Part shown: piece after piece, positions 39,961 to 43,311 of the stretch
Position numbering within the stretch: the first letter of the stretch is position 1
Layout: every line of letters begins with the position of its first letter
DNA from: Candidatus Aldehydirespirator sp.
GTDB lineage: Bacteria > Actinomycetota > Acidimicrobiia > Acidimicrobiales > Aldehydirespiratoraceae
Direction: 5' to 3'
Assembly: GCA_965261105.1 (NCBI GenBank)
Contig: CBDHCM010000006.1
Coordinates: 4,521,839 to 4,585,838 of the forward strand
Length of the DNA stretch: 64,000 nt
The notes under the pieces: model-generated
The model's input: only the letters and a program-made list of their open reading frames with translations
What the model was told of the DNA's origin: nothing
Database searches by the model: none
Program-made: the position numbers and the translations under genes

Positions 39961-41637
39961 CTAGTCGAGCCACTCCTCCCGAGAGATACCGGCCTGCTTC
40001 AACACGTTGTCGAGTAGGTCAACTCCGATGTCGCCGCGGTGAGGGTTGGGGATGCGGACCTTCTGTTTGCCCTTGTGCATGAACTCGTGCTTGGTCCGCC
40101 GTGCCTTCTCGGCGATGAGATGATCGAAGGCTTGGTCTCGTGCCCATCTCAGTTTCACCAGTTCCTCAACCGAGCCGACTGCCCATTCTCCTCTATCCTC
40201 GATTTCTGATCGTAGCTCTTGAAGCGAAATACTGCGGTTGCCCTTCAAGCTATTGTGACTCGGGCATAGAGGGGCGCGGTTATCTATCTCATTTCGACCT
40301 TCCTTAGACCGAGGTTCAATATAGTTCAACTCAAAGTGTCGGGTTGTTTGTTCAATAACTAGCGTTCCATCAGGACCGATCTTCCAATTGGCGAACCCGC
40401 AGCACCATGCTCGCCAATTGGAAAGCTTAAGCAGGTATTGGAGCATCTCTTCGCGAGAAAAGATGCTCGCAGGGGTCTTGTATGTAGGCTCCGGCAGCGG
40501 CTCCACTGCCACGACATCTTCGTCTGGGGAAGTTCGCGTAGGAAGTTCGTTGGGGCCACAAATCGTCACATCAGCTCGTGCCAATGTTATGCCTTCATTA
40601 GCGAGGACGCCTTCCGGCGCTTGACCATCCACTGCGTATCCGAACTTCTCGAACTGGCGGCGTAGGACTGTCATAGCGCGCGGTGAGATATCGCAGGCTA
40701 TCCAGTCGCGGCTCAGCCTTTCTGCTGCAACCGGGACATATGCACAGCCCGCAAAGGGGTCAAGCACAAGATCACCAGCAGCGCTGGACGCTCCGATTAT
40801 AAGTTCCGCAAGGGCGACTGGCTTCTGAGTCGGATAACCTGTGCGCTCCTTCGCTTGATTATTCAAGGAGGGAATGCTCCACACGTCAGTCATGCCCTTC
40901 TGTTGCCCTTTCATCCTTTGTGATGTGGCAGGCTGTGTAGGCTTCGTGAAGGTGAACAAGTCGGACTTCGTATAGAACAACAGCGTGTCGTGTTTACGTG
41001 ACCACCGCTTGGGCGATGATCCGCCCAATCCGTAAGTCCATACGATCTCGTTCTGGAAGTGCGTCTCACCGAAGATGGCATCAAGCAGCATTCGCAGGTA
41101 GCTGTTGGCTGTGTGGTCACAGTGCAAATACATCGACCCAGCTGGCTTCAAGACACGGTGACATTCGATCAACCTGACAGCCATATATGCAAGGTATGCT
41201 GCGGTTCCTTCGGAGTGCGTACGCCGTGTTGTTTGTATAACGTTGTTCACTCCAGGATGCTCGTCCTTGATGTCATTCATCCATTCTTCGTGAACGTCAG
41301 CTTCCCATGACCATATATCTTTAAATTTGGCGGTCTTCTCGCCTGTTGGCCATACGACGTTTGCTTGTTCTGCTTGGATAGCATCCCTGATGCCCCATGC
41401 CGCTAGAGTCTCTGACTCTCTCTGTATCTCGTCGTTTGTTAGTGACGGCTTCAGACTTCCGACGAATGTGTCGTTCTTCGCGAAGGGTGGGTCTGTGCAG
41501 ATGAGGTCAATGCATTCCGTGTCCAAAGCCTTCAGGAGTTGGTAGTTGTCCACAATGAATAGATGCCTGTTGAGCGAATGAGAGTTTGGCATGACAATTA
41601 GATCGCCGGTCATGGCGGAGCCTTCCTCTGGAATCAT
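39961..41637 (-). CDS. DNA methyltransferase (beta-class N6/N4) fused to a degenerate HNH-like domain and a HicA-like tail (paralogue A)
   Basis: LICTDPPFAKN ... TGYPTQKP ... LVLDPFAGCAYV. C-terminal WRAWCCGFANW...FELNYIEPRSKEGRNEIDNRAPLCPSHNSLKGN. Last 44 aa TKHEFMHKGKQKVRIPNPHRGDIGVDLLDNVLKQAGISREEWLD. Start may be ATG 41613. Confidence 0.8.
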   Translation of the reverse strand: MIPEEGSAMTGDLIVMPNSHSLNRHLFIVDNYQLLKALDTECIDLICTDPPFAKNDTFVGSLKPSLTNDEIQRESETLAAWGIRDAIQAEQANVVWPTGEKTAKFKDIWSWEADVHEEWMNDIKDEHPGVNNVIQTTRRTHSEGTAAYLAYMAVRLIECHRVLKPAGSMYLHCDHTANSYLRMLLDAIFGETHFQNEIVWTYGLGGSSPKRWSRKHDTLLFYTKSDLFTFTKPTQPATSQRMKGQQKGMTDVWSIPSLNNQAKERTGYPTQKPVALAELIIGASSAAGDLVLDPFAGCAYVPVAAERLSRDWIACDISPRAMTVLRRQFEKFGYAVDGQAPEGVLANEGITLARADVTICGPNELPTRTSPDEDVVAVEPLPEPTYKTPASIFSREEMLQYLLKLSNWRAWCCGFANWKIGPDGTLVIEQTTRHFELNYIEPRSKEGRNEIDNRAPLCPSHNSLKGNRSISLQELRSEIEDRGEWAVGSVEELVKLRWARDQAFDHLIAEKARRTKHEFMHKGKQKVRIPNPHRGDIGVDLLDNVLKQAGISREEWLD

Positions 41638-41709
41638 GACCTACTTCTACAACCTAGCACTGGCCTGTGACAGGGGTAATCGAAGATCATGATTCTGACA
41701 CGTCTGTAG

Positions 41710-43311
41710 CTAGCCGATACCGGGCAGCGTAGGTCCAAACCGTCGGTACTTCTCCGCAAAGAGGTGATCAATAGCCTTATCTCGCGCCCAGGCTAGGTCT
41801 ACGAGGTCGTCCACAGATGGCACAAGAAGTTCATCGCGCTTCGAAATCTCTGTCCGAAGGTCCTCCAACATGATTCTGCGGTCACTCTTCATACTGTTGT
41901 GATACGGGCATAGCGGAGCACGATTGGCTATCTCGTGTCTTCCATCTTTGGACTTCGGATCGATATGATCAAGCTCAAAGTTTCTGGTCGTGTGCTCAAT
42001 CTCAGGTTGGCCGTATCGCCCCACTCTCCAGTTGGCAAAGCCGCAGCACCAGGCACGCCATTCCGACAGTCCAAGCAGGTACTCGAACATGTCCTCGCGG
42101 GTAAAGATACTCGCGTGAGACTTGTACTTCCGTTGGGGCAACGGCTTGACCGACGCTACGTCATCCTCGATTGTCGTCCTAACCGGAAGTTGATTGGGGC
42201 CGCCGATCGCAACATCAGCTACACTCAACATTTCACCCTCTGATATTTCTCCGTCCACAGAGTAGGCAAACTTCTTGAACTGTCTGCGTAGCACTGTCAA
42301 GGCTCGGGGCGAGATGTCACAGGCCATCCACTGACGTGAGAGACGTTCTGCGGCGACGGGGACATACGCGCATCCGGCAAATGGGTCGAATACTACATCC
42401 CGCGGGTTACTAGATGCCTGCAAGATGCGTTCTGCCAGTGCTACCGGCTTTTGAGTAGGATAACCGGTTCGCTCGGTTGCCCAGGGCATGACACCATGAT
42501 GCTGCCACACATCATCGGCAATCTTGCCCTTTGAGTAGTTACGCTCAGAGCCATCTGCGCGCTTTTGGCCCCGGTTCCACTTATGAGGAACACGGACTGC
42601 ATCAGCGTTGAACGTCCATGAGTCTCCCTTGCTATAGAACAGAATGGTGTCGTGCTTCCTTCCCCAGCGGCGTTTAGATGCTCCGCCTCCGCCGTAGTAC
42701 CAGATGAACTCGTTCTGGAAGTTGCTCGGATCGAAGATGGCATCAAGGAGCATTCTGAGGTAGCTATTCGCGGTGTGATCACAGTGCAGATATAGCGACC
42801 CGGTTGGTTTCAGAACTCGATGGCACTCGATCAGCCTTACGGCCATATATGCCACGTAGGCCGCCATGCCTTCTGAATGTGTGTGGCGGGTCGTCTCTAT
42901 GATGTTTAAGACTCGGGGGCGCTGGTCTTTGATGTCGTTCATCCACTGCTCATGGACATCGGATTCCCATGACCAGACATCCTTGAACTTCGCTGTTGAC
43001 TCTCCCGTCGGCCATACGACGTGAGATTGTTCAGCTTCGGCGGGGTTGTGGATGCCCCATGACCTGAGCGTCTCTAGCTCCTTCTGTATCTCCTCCTCAG
43101 CGAGAGACGGCTTCAGGCCACCTACGAACGTCTCGTTTTTGGCAAAGGGCGGGTCGGTGCAAATCAAAGCAACGCTAGCGGTGTCCATGGACTTTAGCAG
43201 TTGGTAGTTGTCAACGATGAACAGATGACGGTTGAGCAAATACGACTCGTGGTGCGCGGCTTGATTGGCGGTCACGGTGAGCGTCCTTGTCGAAGAGAGG
43301 AATGTGCTCAT
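41710..43311 (-). CDS. DNA methyltransferase (beta-class N6/N4) fused to an intact HNH nuclease motif (paralogue B)
   Basis: LICTDPPFAKN ... TGYPTQKP ... VVFDPFAGCAYV. C-terminal WRAWCCGFANW...FELDHIDPKSKDGRHEIANRAPLCPYHNSMKSDR. Confidence 0.8.
   Translation of the reverse strand: MSTFLSSTRTLTVTANQAAHHESYLLNRHLFIVDNYQLLKSMDTASVALICTDPPFAKNETFVGGLKPSLAEEEIQKELETLRSWGIHNPAEAEQSHVVWPTGESTAKFKDVWSWESDVHEQWMNDIKDQRPRVLNIIETTRHTHSEGMAAYVAYMAVRLIECHRVLKPTGSLYLHCDHTANSYLRMLLDAIFDPSNFQNEFIWYYGGGGASKRRWGRKHDTILFYSKGDSWTFNADAVRVPHKWNRGQKRADGSERNYSKGKIADDVWQHHGVMPWATERTGYPTQKPVALAERILQASSNPRDVVFDPFAGCAYVPVAAERLSRQWMACDISPRALTVLRRQFKKFAYSVDGEISEGEMLSVADVAIGGPNQLPVRTTIEDDVASVKPLPQRKYKSHASIFTREDMFEYLLGLSEWRAWCCGFANWRVGRYGQPEIEHTTRNFELDHIDPKSKDGRHEIANRAPLCPYHNSMKSDRRIMLEDLRTEISKRDELLVPSVDDLVDLAWARDKAIDHLFAEKYRRFGPTLPGIG

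Follow-up and report, generated by a model that had tools for sequence, protein, structure and literature searches.

Two Adjacent Methyltransferase–HNH Fusion Genes

The sequence analyzed here (the window) is a stretch of 64,000 nt from Candidatus Aldehydirespirator sp. (contig CBDHCM010000006.1), the minus strand of which carries two co-directional neighboring genes, A and B, that lie 72 bp apart (Table 1). An earlier note, made from the sequence alone, had described them as open reading frames (ORFs) of 558 and 533 aa that fuse a DNA methyltransferase (MTase) to an HNH nuclease domain. Both ORFs are present, and BLASTP aligns their products with 326/518 identities (63%, E = 0). The motifs quoted in that note all recur in the translations, namely DPPF, TGYPTQKP, DPFAGCAY, WCCGF, ELNYI (in A) or ELDHI (in B), and NRAPLCP(S/Y)HNS(L/M)K. 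The database call for B starts at GTG 43275 (codon 13) and gives a protein of 521 aa; the start of A is probably Met9 at 41613 (550 aa), as in its own database call.

Pfam assigns both products an N6_N4_Mtase domain (PF01555; A, E 8e-40; B, E 1.7e-42) and an HNH domain (PF01844), the latter scoring 24.5 bits in A and 26.6 bits in B, each above the gathering score of 21.4 bits. The AlphaFold2 model of B (predicted local distance difference test, pLDDT, 86.5; predicted template modeling score, pTM, 0.71) divides into an MTase body (residues 28-385), a disordered linker (386-397), and a C-terminal domain (400-525). In the databases both genes are annotated simply as "DNA methyltransferase", and neither NCBIfam nor PADLOC has a specific family for them; generic MTase models match, together with a marginal match of the C-terminal domain to REase_II. 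Judging from the sequences and models set out below, we think it somewhat probable that each gene encodes a self-contained, one-protein restriction-modification (RM) enzyme. A nuclease and an N6-methyladenine (m6A) MTase in one polypeptide are Type IIC by definition (PMC2441816), and because both domains lie in one polypeptide here, the family is placed as putative Type IIC.

Table 1. Coordinates of genes A and B, their domains and motifs, and the surrounding islet within the window
Feature	Position	Strand	Remarks
Gene A, MTase–recognition domain–HNH paralogue	39961..41637	-	558 aa from ATG 41637; HNH dyad mutated, chimeric C terminus
A target recognition domain, residues 225-263	40849..40965	-	Type unlike that of B; shared with P0025, P0027, P0030, P0449
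A mutation patch, codons 434-439	40323..40338	-	RNFELDHI to RHFELNYI; HNH Asp-His dyad destroyed
hicA remnant fused in frame to A	39961..40095	-	A residues 515-558 plus stop = HicA residues 29-72
Gene B, MTase–recognition domain–HNH fusion	41710..43311	-	533 aa from ATG 43311; catalytic motifs intact
B beta-class N6_N4 MTase core, residues ~28-345	42277..43230	-	Pfam PF01555
B motif IV DPPF	43144-43155	-	Residues 53-56
B target recognition domain, residues 229-279	42475..42627	-	Same type in P0002, P0035 (Dehalococcoidia), P0045
B TGYPTQKP	42445-42468	-	Motif position
B motif I DPFAGCAY	42364-42387	-	Motif position
B C-terminal domain, residues 400-525	41737..42114	-	HNH beta-beta-alpha-Me fold, then helical tail
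B WCCGF	42037-42051	-	C-terminal domain
B ELDHI	41962-41976	-	Asp448-His449 at 41965-41970
B NRAPLCPYHNSMK	41887-41925	-	C-terminal domain
Genomic islet	39961..44138	-	Inserted at 3' end of tRNA-Ser(gct); inverted-repeat element + B + A::hicA' fusion
Inverted-repeat element, 360 bp, resembling a miniature inverted-repeat transposable element	43568..43927		Perfect 23-nt terminal inverted repeats CTCTAGCCCTGATCGTTCACGAG; between gene B and tRNA
tRNA-Ser(gct)	44138..44230	-	ARAGORN + Rfam; 3' end = island boundary

A Beta-Class Methyltransferase with an Exchangeable Recognition Segment

Both proteins have the circularly permuted motif order of beta-class MTases: DPPF (motif IV, at residues 49-52 of A), a variable segment, TGYPTQKP, and DPFAGCAY. 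The closest Protein Data Bank (PDB) sequence matches of the B MTase are M.MboIIA (1.2e-18), M.RsrI (3e-18), M.BceJIV, and CcrM, followed by N4-cytosine (N4C) enzymes and Type III Mod subunits; Foldseek comparison of the B model returns M.RsrI (1.7e-18), M.BceJIV, M.MboIIA, and CcrM with TM(target) values of 0.73-0.81. Pfam, PDB sequence matches, and Foldseek thus agree with the earlier assignment to the beta class with a target recognition domain (TRD) in midgene. As motif IV has Asp rather than Ser and the best matches are N6-adenine enzymes, the target base of the A/B-type methylase is probably m6A.

The earlier note had also reported a stretch, running from FQNE..W to TGYPTQKP, over which A and B could not be aligned. 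Such a stretch does exist in midgene, but it is narrower (A 225-263, B 229-279) and begins after KHDT..FY.K, not at FQNE..W. Here the two proteins are 18% identical, against 74% and 56% on either side, in agreement with the claim that their TRDs differ.

To place this difference in the wider family, relatives were collected from one genome per species (185,579 species). The survey gave 235 relatives, and counts of loci given below refer to the best 78 loci unless another total is named; TRDs were compared by alignment across all 87 copies. Comparison of paralogues within the same genome (58 pairs from 20 genomes) shows TRDs that are at most 38% identical in every pair (median 16%), set between N-terminal and C-terminal parts with median identities of 67% and 71% and maxima of 91% and 99%. 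Conversely, similar TRDs are found on divergent cores across phyla. From this pattern the TRD appears to be a specificity cassette that is exchanged on a conserved chassis, the informative point being that near-identical cores bear unrelated TRDs.

The C-Terminal Domain Is Predicted to Be an HNH Nuclease

In the model of B the C-terminal domain contains a beta-beta-alpha-Me core made of strand 446-449 (ELDH), strand 464-467, and helix 469-475, with pLDDT values of 94-98; a model of the isolated domain has a pLDDT of 92.7. When compared with the PDB, a family profile of this domain matches the Type II-C Cas9 HNH domains of 8d2k (2.9e-10) and 4ogc (3e-6), Gmet_0936 (1.3e-5), and EcoKMcrA (1.7e-3), and IscB-like proteins are also matched. 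The best 50 PDB matches that Foldseek returns for the isolated domain are all HNH nucleases. The earlier prediction of a C-terminal HNH, or beta-beta-alpha-Me, fold is therefore borne out for the last ~130 aa by Pfam, by the PDB profile search, and by AlphaFold with Foldseek.

Over 78 aligned members from two phyla, D448, H449, N463, and N472 are conserved at 90% or more, C423 and C468 without exception. The Asp-His, Asn, and Asn residues of B align with the catalytic set of Cas9; we take the dyad and Asn to be the equivalents of SpCas9 D839/H840/N863 and would accordingly liken A of the window to a natural H840-type mutant. DH is present in all of the best 120 database matches and in every full-length copy of the 78 loci, A of the window excepted. 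Domains reduced to binding modules are generally expected to lose catalytic residues. In most members a Cys-Cys-Cys-His zinc set is possible on the sequence, while a canonical CxxC...CxxC arrangement is retained in the second copy of locus L028, in L034, L068, L074, and L080, and in the L026-type paralogue described below.

Family Distribution and the Prevalence of Solitary Copies

Database searches with B return hundreds of full-length relatives, the best 120 of which span 44-100% identity and 443-619 aa. Among 1.84 billion representative sequences the C-terminal module forms 87 clusters and is thus a narrow family, and it is C-terminal in every complete protein. The 78 loci come from Acidimicrobiia (Ca. 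Aldehydirespiratoraceae and Ca. Spongiisociaceae), Dehalococcoidia, and one metagenome-assembled genome of Caldilineaceae; members from Actinomycetota and Chloroflexota are ~50% identical. Many genomes have several dispersed copies, with at least 6 in OZ251484.1 and at least 5 in OZ242043.1. Of 87 copies, 63 have a GC content below that of the flanking DNA, and none exceeds it.

The hosts are apparently sponge symbionts, given the Spongiisociaceae names, the presence of a GPP34-family gene in L002 (Dehalococcoidia; 5611-6264, 4 kb from the family copy), and a published description in which GPP34 is a marker of sponge symbiosis and Aldehydirespiratoraceae include a sponge-symbiotic lineage enriched in RM and other defense systems (PMC11706023).

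Second copies were sought on the same strand within 10 kb either side of each family gene. None is present in 71 of the 78 loci; tandem or near-tandem arrangements are found in 7 (~9%), and in two more the additional copy is decayed and lies on the other strand. By a rough estimate random dispersal would give tandem pairs in 1-3% of loci, and the excess fits local duplication. All-against-all clustering of the ORFs within 5 kb of family genes revealed no conserved partner gene in the 78 loci: the top cluster, a luciferase-like oxidoreductase, occurs in 17 loci, and the second-ranking cluster is the divergent MTase–HNH paralogue considered below. A gene for a Type III Res helicase-nuclease is absent from the island of the window, and none emerges as a conserved neighbor in the 78 loci. 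Because the copies are mostly solitary and have no conserved neighbor, the protein is likely to be self-sufficient.

Five copies are truncated or frameshifted. Those in L027 and L075 end short of the HNH domain, and their later MTase motifs can still be read; the three others are remnants that break off early. Gene A of the window adds point lesions within the HNH domain. Among the copies inspected, none clearly combined a dead MTase with a live HNH, although the numbers are small. Loss of the nuclease with retention of the methylase is the pattern that a toxic nuclease paired with a protective methylase would predict.

Gene A Carries a Private Lesion and a Foreign C Terminus

The DH dyad, which the earlier note had reported as lost from A, is indeed replaced by N438-Y439. 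The sister assembly L004 has the same tandem pair (99.2% identity over 12.4 kb) with DH in both copies, and comparison with it reveals five substitutions within 16 nt: AAC>CAC (N>H), TTC>TTT and TTA>TTG (both synonymous), GAC>AAC (D>N), and CAT>TAT (H>Y). In all, A differs from its L004 orthologue at 18 nucleotides, 5 of which fall in this patch. The cluster that contains A at 90% identity has four members: the window protein (NY), P0027 and P0450 (both DH and fused to hicA), and the JGI sequence P0449 (DH). Since these three cluster mates keep DH, NY is best read as a recent, strain-specific lesion, and its sequence looks like a micro-conversion tract or clustered mutation rather than a designed feature. 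No donor sequence for the 16-nt patch was found, and no NY allele turned up when JGI metagenome contigs were scanned with a degenerate 32-mer; the exact NY protein is on record from the source genome only (2 contigs). Inspection of ~210 family sequences besides A identified no second copy with a dead dyad.

The last 44 residues of A are foreign to the family and correspond to the 3' part of hicA, a match that Pfam detects as HicA_toxin (PF07927; E 7e-5, below the gathering threshold). The remnant is identical to the intact hicA of locus L165 (11631-11765; 100% over 135 nt, 44/44 aa), while the housekeeping flanks are 80-83% identical, and this disparity suggests that the hicBA module has itself recently been mobile among these genomes. 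L165 has orf82-hicB-hicA at the equivalent site (hicBA 11070-11765). Complete HicA and HicB are absent at the window, where hicB and the 5' part of hicA, present in L165, are missing. The C terminus of P0449 is un-fused and has the natural family form ...RRHGPVLPSIA. By sequence comparison, then, the 3' half of a resident hicA appears to have replaced the C-terminal ~10 residues of A before the NY lesion arose; the fusion thereby dates the order of events.

An Islet Bordered by tRNA-Ser(gct)

Genes A and B belong to an islet of 4.2 kb. Homology of the window to three related loci (L163, L164, and L165) ends exactly at the 3' end of tRNA-Ser(gct) (44138/44139), and homology to L165 resumes for 40095-39961 only, ending at the hicA stop codon. 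The island limits of 39961-44138 were set because homology with relatives ends at the tRNA and resumes in the 3' part of hicA; in the window lineage the MTase pair occupies the position that hicB and the 5' portion of hicA have in L165. A flanking PAE gene and tRNA-Ser(gct) are common to the window and these relatives, four related genomes have differing cargo directly downstream of the same tRNA, and the 3' end of tRNA-Ser(gct) is an integration hot spot. The earlier description of an AT-richer locus near a tRNA gene is accurate (53% versus 67% GC; 827 bp from gene B to the tRNA): the low-GC tract of the island extends over ~40,050-43,400 with 53.4% GC, compared with 67.1% for the window. On composition and boundaries the island appears to have been horizontally acquired. 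At the far border of the island the 3' end of the tRNA does not recur as an att-type direct repeat, the Rfam scan found only tRNAs, and no phage genes occur in the island or in those homologous loci with listed gene content.

The 360-bp inverted-repeat element is confined to the window and its sister L004 among 166 loci. An ORF that overlaps it (43413-43925, +) has a weak match to DDE transposases (E 0.028).

Elsewhere a family gene lies just downstream of a tRNA in 3 of 60 scanned loci, all from Acidimicrobiia: it directly follows tRNA-Val in L005 (9369-9444) and L015 (9716-9792) and tRNA-Met in L006 (9235-9310). In two of these three, the same tRNA-Gly/Cys/Val cluster precedes differing family subtypes. 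Such arrangements suggest that tRNA-proximal sites are used recurrently by the family.

Mobile genes are also seen on the other side of the PAE gene in L163 (5040-5516) and L164 (7593-8758), where phage-integrase fragments, insertion sequences (IS110, ISL3, IS21), and a HepT/MNT toxin-antitoxin pair make the tRNA-Ser/PAE neighborhood a mobile-element hot spot. Two further low-GC patches lie within the window. One, ~4 kb from the islet (47632-49624, +), encodes a 485-aa AAA_15/AAA_21 ATPase and a 175-aa ORF without a family match; the ATPase matches the PADLOC model PD-T4-4_A (E 7e-32) and also the AriA, GajA, and Old models, which makes the patch a candidate two-gene PD-T4-4-like defense islet, also present in L004. 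The other (29872-32280, -; 61% GC) has ORFs of 369, 208, and 221 aa, none of which matches Pfam or PADLOC.

Related Architectures in Bacteria and Phages

In several Dehalococcoidia genomes, at distances of a few kilobases from family copies, there is a divergent paralogue with a canonical CxxC..DH..N..CxxCN HNH domain (L026 5399-6976, L027 6029-7600, L020 7705-9117). A further family of beta-MTase–HNH fusions, ~400 aa long, belongs to the same clade, including its N-terminal insertion, has a canonical HNH, and is found in bacterial genomes and on phage contigs. It is very numerous, and its best 120 matches all combine PF01555, PF01844, and PF14279. Relative to these fusions the window family is ~120 aa longer: a linker and a beta-hairpin region are added, the zinc site is degenerate, and the helical tail at the C terminus is conserved.

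In a third variant the nuclease itself is different. WP_165137960.1 (L166 6001-7632), from the Microbacterium amylolyticum plasmid NZ_CP049254.1, has the same MTase clade with its N-terminal insertion and a nuclease at the C terminus, but the fold of the latter is Mrr_cat/NA-iREase1 PD-(D/E)xK in place of HNH. The occurrence of two unrelated nuclease folds at the same position argues for DNA cutting as the purpose of the C-terminal module. The gene, annotated only as "DNA methyltransferase", has zeta-toxin and Fic/VbhA toxin-antitoxin modules around it.

Many cultured phages carry an MTase of this clade that has no nuclease attached: among 50,697 records, 164 match B over the MTase core only, and the HNH domain is covered in none. 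IMG/VR contains no family member at 45% identity or more over full length, only relatives of 30-47%. An association of the fusion with terminase genes was considered and rejected, as in two phage contigs it adjoins tail genes with no terminase among the neighbors scanned.

A Putative One-Protein Restriction-Modification Enzyme

Domain identities, conservation of catalytic residues, solitary copies, TRD diversity, nuclease swapping, the pattern of decay, and foreign GC content all favor the reading of each gene as a self-contained RM enzyme. In such an enzyme the TRD and MTase body would find a specific site, and methylation would mark the host's own sites. The HNH domain, joined to the methylase by a flexible linker, would nick or cut unmethylated sites or the DNA close to them, probably as a dimer where cleavage is double-stranded. 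As their TRDs are unrelated, A and B are expected to differ in specificity and would work independently on two different motifs, A in this strain being most likely a methylase-only (M+ R-) remnant. The wider proposal is one that we make tentatively: that the family may represent an uncharacterized class of one-protein RM systems, which would couple a beta-class m6A MTase and an exchangeable TRD to a tethered HNH nuclease of the Cas9/McrA type and would have radiated by TRD swapping and cross-phylum transfer in Acidimicrobiia and Chloroflexota, apparently sponge symbionts, to reach at least six specificities per genome. Every copy would then mark its own site and also cut or nick it. The PD-T4-4-like candidate ~4 kb away lends weak contextual support to a role in defense.

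Several observations weigh against the RM reading. The zinc site is noncanonical in most members (AWCCG...CP.HN, that is CC...CxxH versus CxxC...CxxC), so the stability of the fold and the activity of the HNH domain are assumptions. Foldseek matches of the isolated domain reach no better than a modest E-value of 6e-3, and PADLOC nuclease models barely match it (REase_II, E 0.009). At 39-51 aa, the TRDs are very short. The C-terminal domain of CcrM is reported to act in DNA binding, and by analogy that of the present family could contribute mainly DNA binding. The absence of shared TRDs from the 58 within-genome pairs is not significant alone, as only ~1.7 would be expected from a 3% background. 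A single chain must also spare the host DNA from cutting until it is methylated. Reviews and full-text literature (REBASE not covered) contain no experimental study of a beta-MTase–HNH fusion, or of the MTase–Mrr variant, that we could find; the earlier note likewise knew of no characterized RM class of this build. Finally, because Tyr can serve as the general base in PacI (PMC4081073), the HNH domain of A may by analogy be impaired rather than dead.

The alternative that survives best, although we regard it as unlikely, is that these are orphan, nonrestricting MTases with an epigenetic or anti-restriction role, the HNH-derived domain having become a DNA clamp or binding module or a housekeeping nickase. 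Plain annotation as "DNA methyltransferase" is in keeping with this, as are the degenerate set of zinc ligands and TRDs so short that the C-terminal domain could supply DNA affinity. Nuclease-free members of the clade in cultured phages point the same way, such phage MTases usually being regarded as counter-restriction. However, the catalytic D-H...N...N set is conserved across phyla, and an unrelated Mrr_cat nuclease at the same position is hard to explain by DNA binding. The genes are moreover multicopy, TRD-swapped, GC-atypical, and prone to pseudogenization, whereas housekeeping orphan MTases, CcrM and Dam among them, typically exist as one copy with fixed specificity and native composition.

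We also think it quite unlikely that the family is primarily a selfish, homing-type element, in which HNH would cut unmethylated cognate sites in naive genomes and thereby drive the insertion or retention of its gene, the methylase would protect the carrier, and defense would be incidental. Free-standing HNH homing endonucleases are common in phages, and the family does occur as one-gene cassettes in unrelated housekeeping contexts without an integrase, spread over two phyla at ~50% identity, with foreign GC content, multicopy expansion, and an excess of tandem pairs. Neither a target-site nor a boundary signature was found, however, and the tRNA hot spot occupied by the island of the window is a generic one, with other cargo in relatives, so that insertion does not look specific to the cassette. 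As RM systems are described as mobile, selfish elements (PMC2853133), the homing reading overlaps the RM reading rather than opposing it.

The earlier note had proposed that A and B form one module, an obligate heteromer, nicking or regulated, in which two MTases read half-sites or strands of an asymmetric target and only one subunit has a live HNH domain. Adjacent, co-directional genes with differing TRDs invite such a proposal, as does the frequency of same-strand tandem pairs relative to the random estimate. The structural matches of the B MTase include EcoP15I Mod, which acts as a dimer with one protomer recognizing the site and the other methylating. Nonetheless, we consider the heteromer very unlikely. 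About nine in ten loci have a single copy without a partner, single occurrence being part of what the note itself had named as refuting, and the A-type orthologue P0030 is itself solitary in another genome (L015). The note had suggested a survey for pairs of one NY-type and one DH-type copy; outside the window, L004 and the tandem pairs of L054, L072, and L075 have DH in both members, and the assembly with P0450 combines a hicA-fused A that retains DH with a B orthologue (P0451). Nor does the dead subunit hold up as architecture, the A orthologues of three other assemblies being DH and the NY patch private. The dead copy is thus better read as decay of one of two independent cassettes, given that orthologues keep DH, NY is private, and no other loss of DH was seen. 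That co-resident paralogues heterodimerize to give combinatorial specificities is a speculative idea and equally improbable.

We give least credence to the idea of a phage-gene relic without a cellular role (MTase and HNH of phage origin, for instance from a terminase or packaging HNH), since, despite shorter canonical MTase–HNH fusions on bona fide phage contigs and PHROG matches for both halves, family members are absent from IMG/VR and from the cultured phage records, phage genes are lacking from the island and from homologous loci with listed content, the two viral examples place the fusion by tail genes, and intact copies are conserved long-term in many genomes.

Implications

If an active HNH nuclease is indeed directed by the TRD, the family would be a structurally new single-chain solution to RM in ~520 aa; MmeI-type enzymes are about twice this size. 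Specificity would reside in a swappable cassette of 40-110 aa, and the family would amount to a library of compact, modular, sequence-specific HNH nucleases, of interest to enzyme discovery for new specificities, for natural nickases, and for engineering by modules. The diversification of symbiont defenses in phage-rich sponge tissue would also become easier to explain. Close relatives that have the same hicA-fused A and differ at the HNH catalytic dyad offer a natural experiment. Should the nuclease be inactive, the family would be a large but ordinary set of mobile orphan methylases.

Comparison with Known Systems

The RM enzymes closest in concept are those of Type IIC/IIG (MmeI, BpuSI, and the Tth111II/TspGWI family), which likewise hold both domains in one chain and can be self-sufficient. 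MmeI is described as a minimal system of one protein, whereas BpuSI is described as having its PD-x15-ExK endonuclease domain at the N terminus, coupled to recognition and methylation at the C terminus. The layouts differ: theirs consists of an N-terminal PD-(D/E)xK nuclease, a gamma-class MTase (the class found in characterized Type IIC/IIG enzymes), and a C-terminal TRD, whereas the present family has a beta-class MTase, an internal TRD, and a C-terminal HNH domain.

By sequence, the MTase body finds its best PDB match in the MboII system (M.MboIIA), but there the methylase and the nuclease are two proteins that recognize the DNA separately. R.MboII is listed among the HNH restriction enzymes, HNH being the second most common catalytic fold of Type II (PMC4081073). 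Unlike the HNH Type II endonucleases KpnI, SphI, Hpy99I, and PacI, the HNH domain described here lacks a separate recognition domain and is attached to a methylase. In reviews of 2014 and 2025 the HNH fold is discussed solely for free-standing enzymes of Type II or Type IV. The combination of domains is nevertheless already abundant and automatically annotated in databases; it is an unstudied, compact, modular family.

With Type III Mod subunits, of which EcoP15I and Mbo45V are structural matches, the family shares a beta-class MTase and a central TRD. Type III mod alleles have conserved ends and a shuffled central TRD, similar to the pattern measured here. In contrast to Type III systems, there is no Res partner or conserved neighbor, and the nuclease is fused and, from its domain content, ATP-independent. 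By profile and fold the nearest solved relatives of the HNH domain are those of Cas9, IscB, EcoKMcrA, ScoMcrA, and Gmet_0936, with which it has the layout LDHI.P..GG..N...C..CN..K in common. It differs from the Cas9- and McrA-type proteins in the CC...CxxH zinc set of most members and in its targeting, which would be provided by a methyltransferase with a TRD in place of an RNA guide or a modified-base reader.

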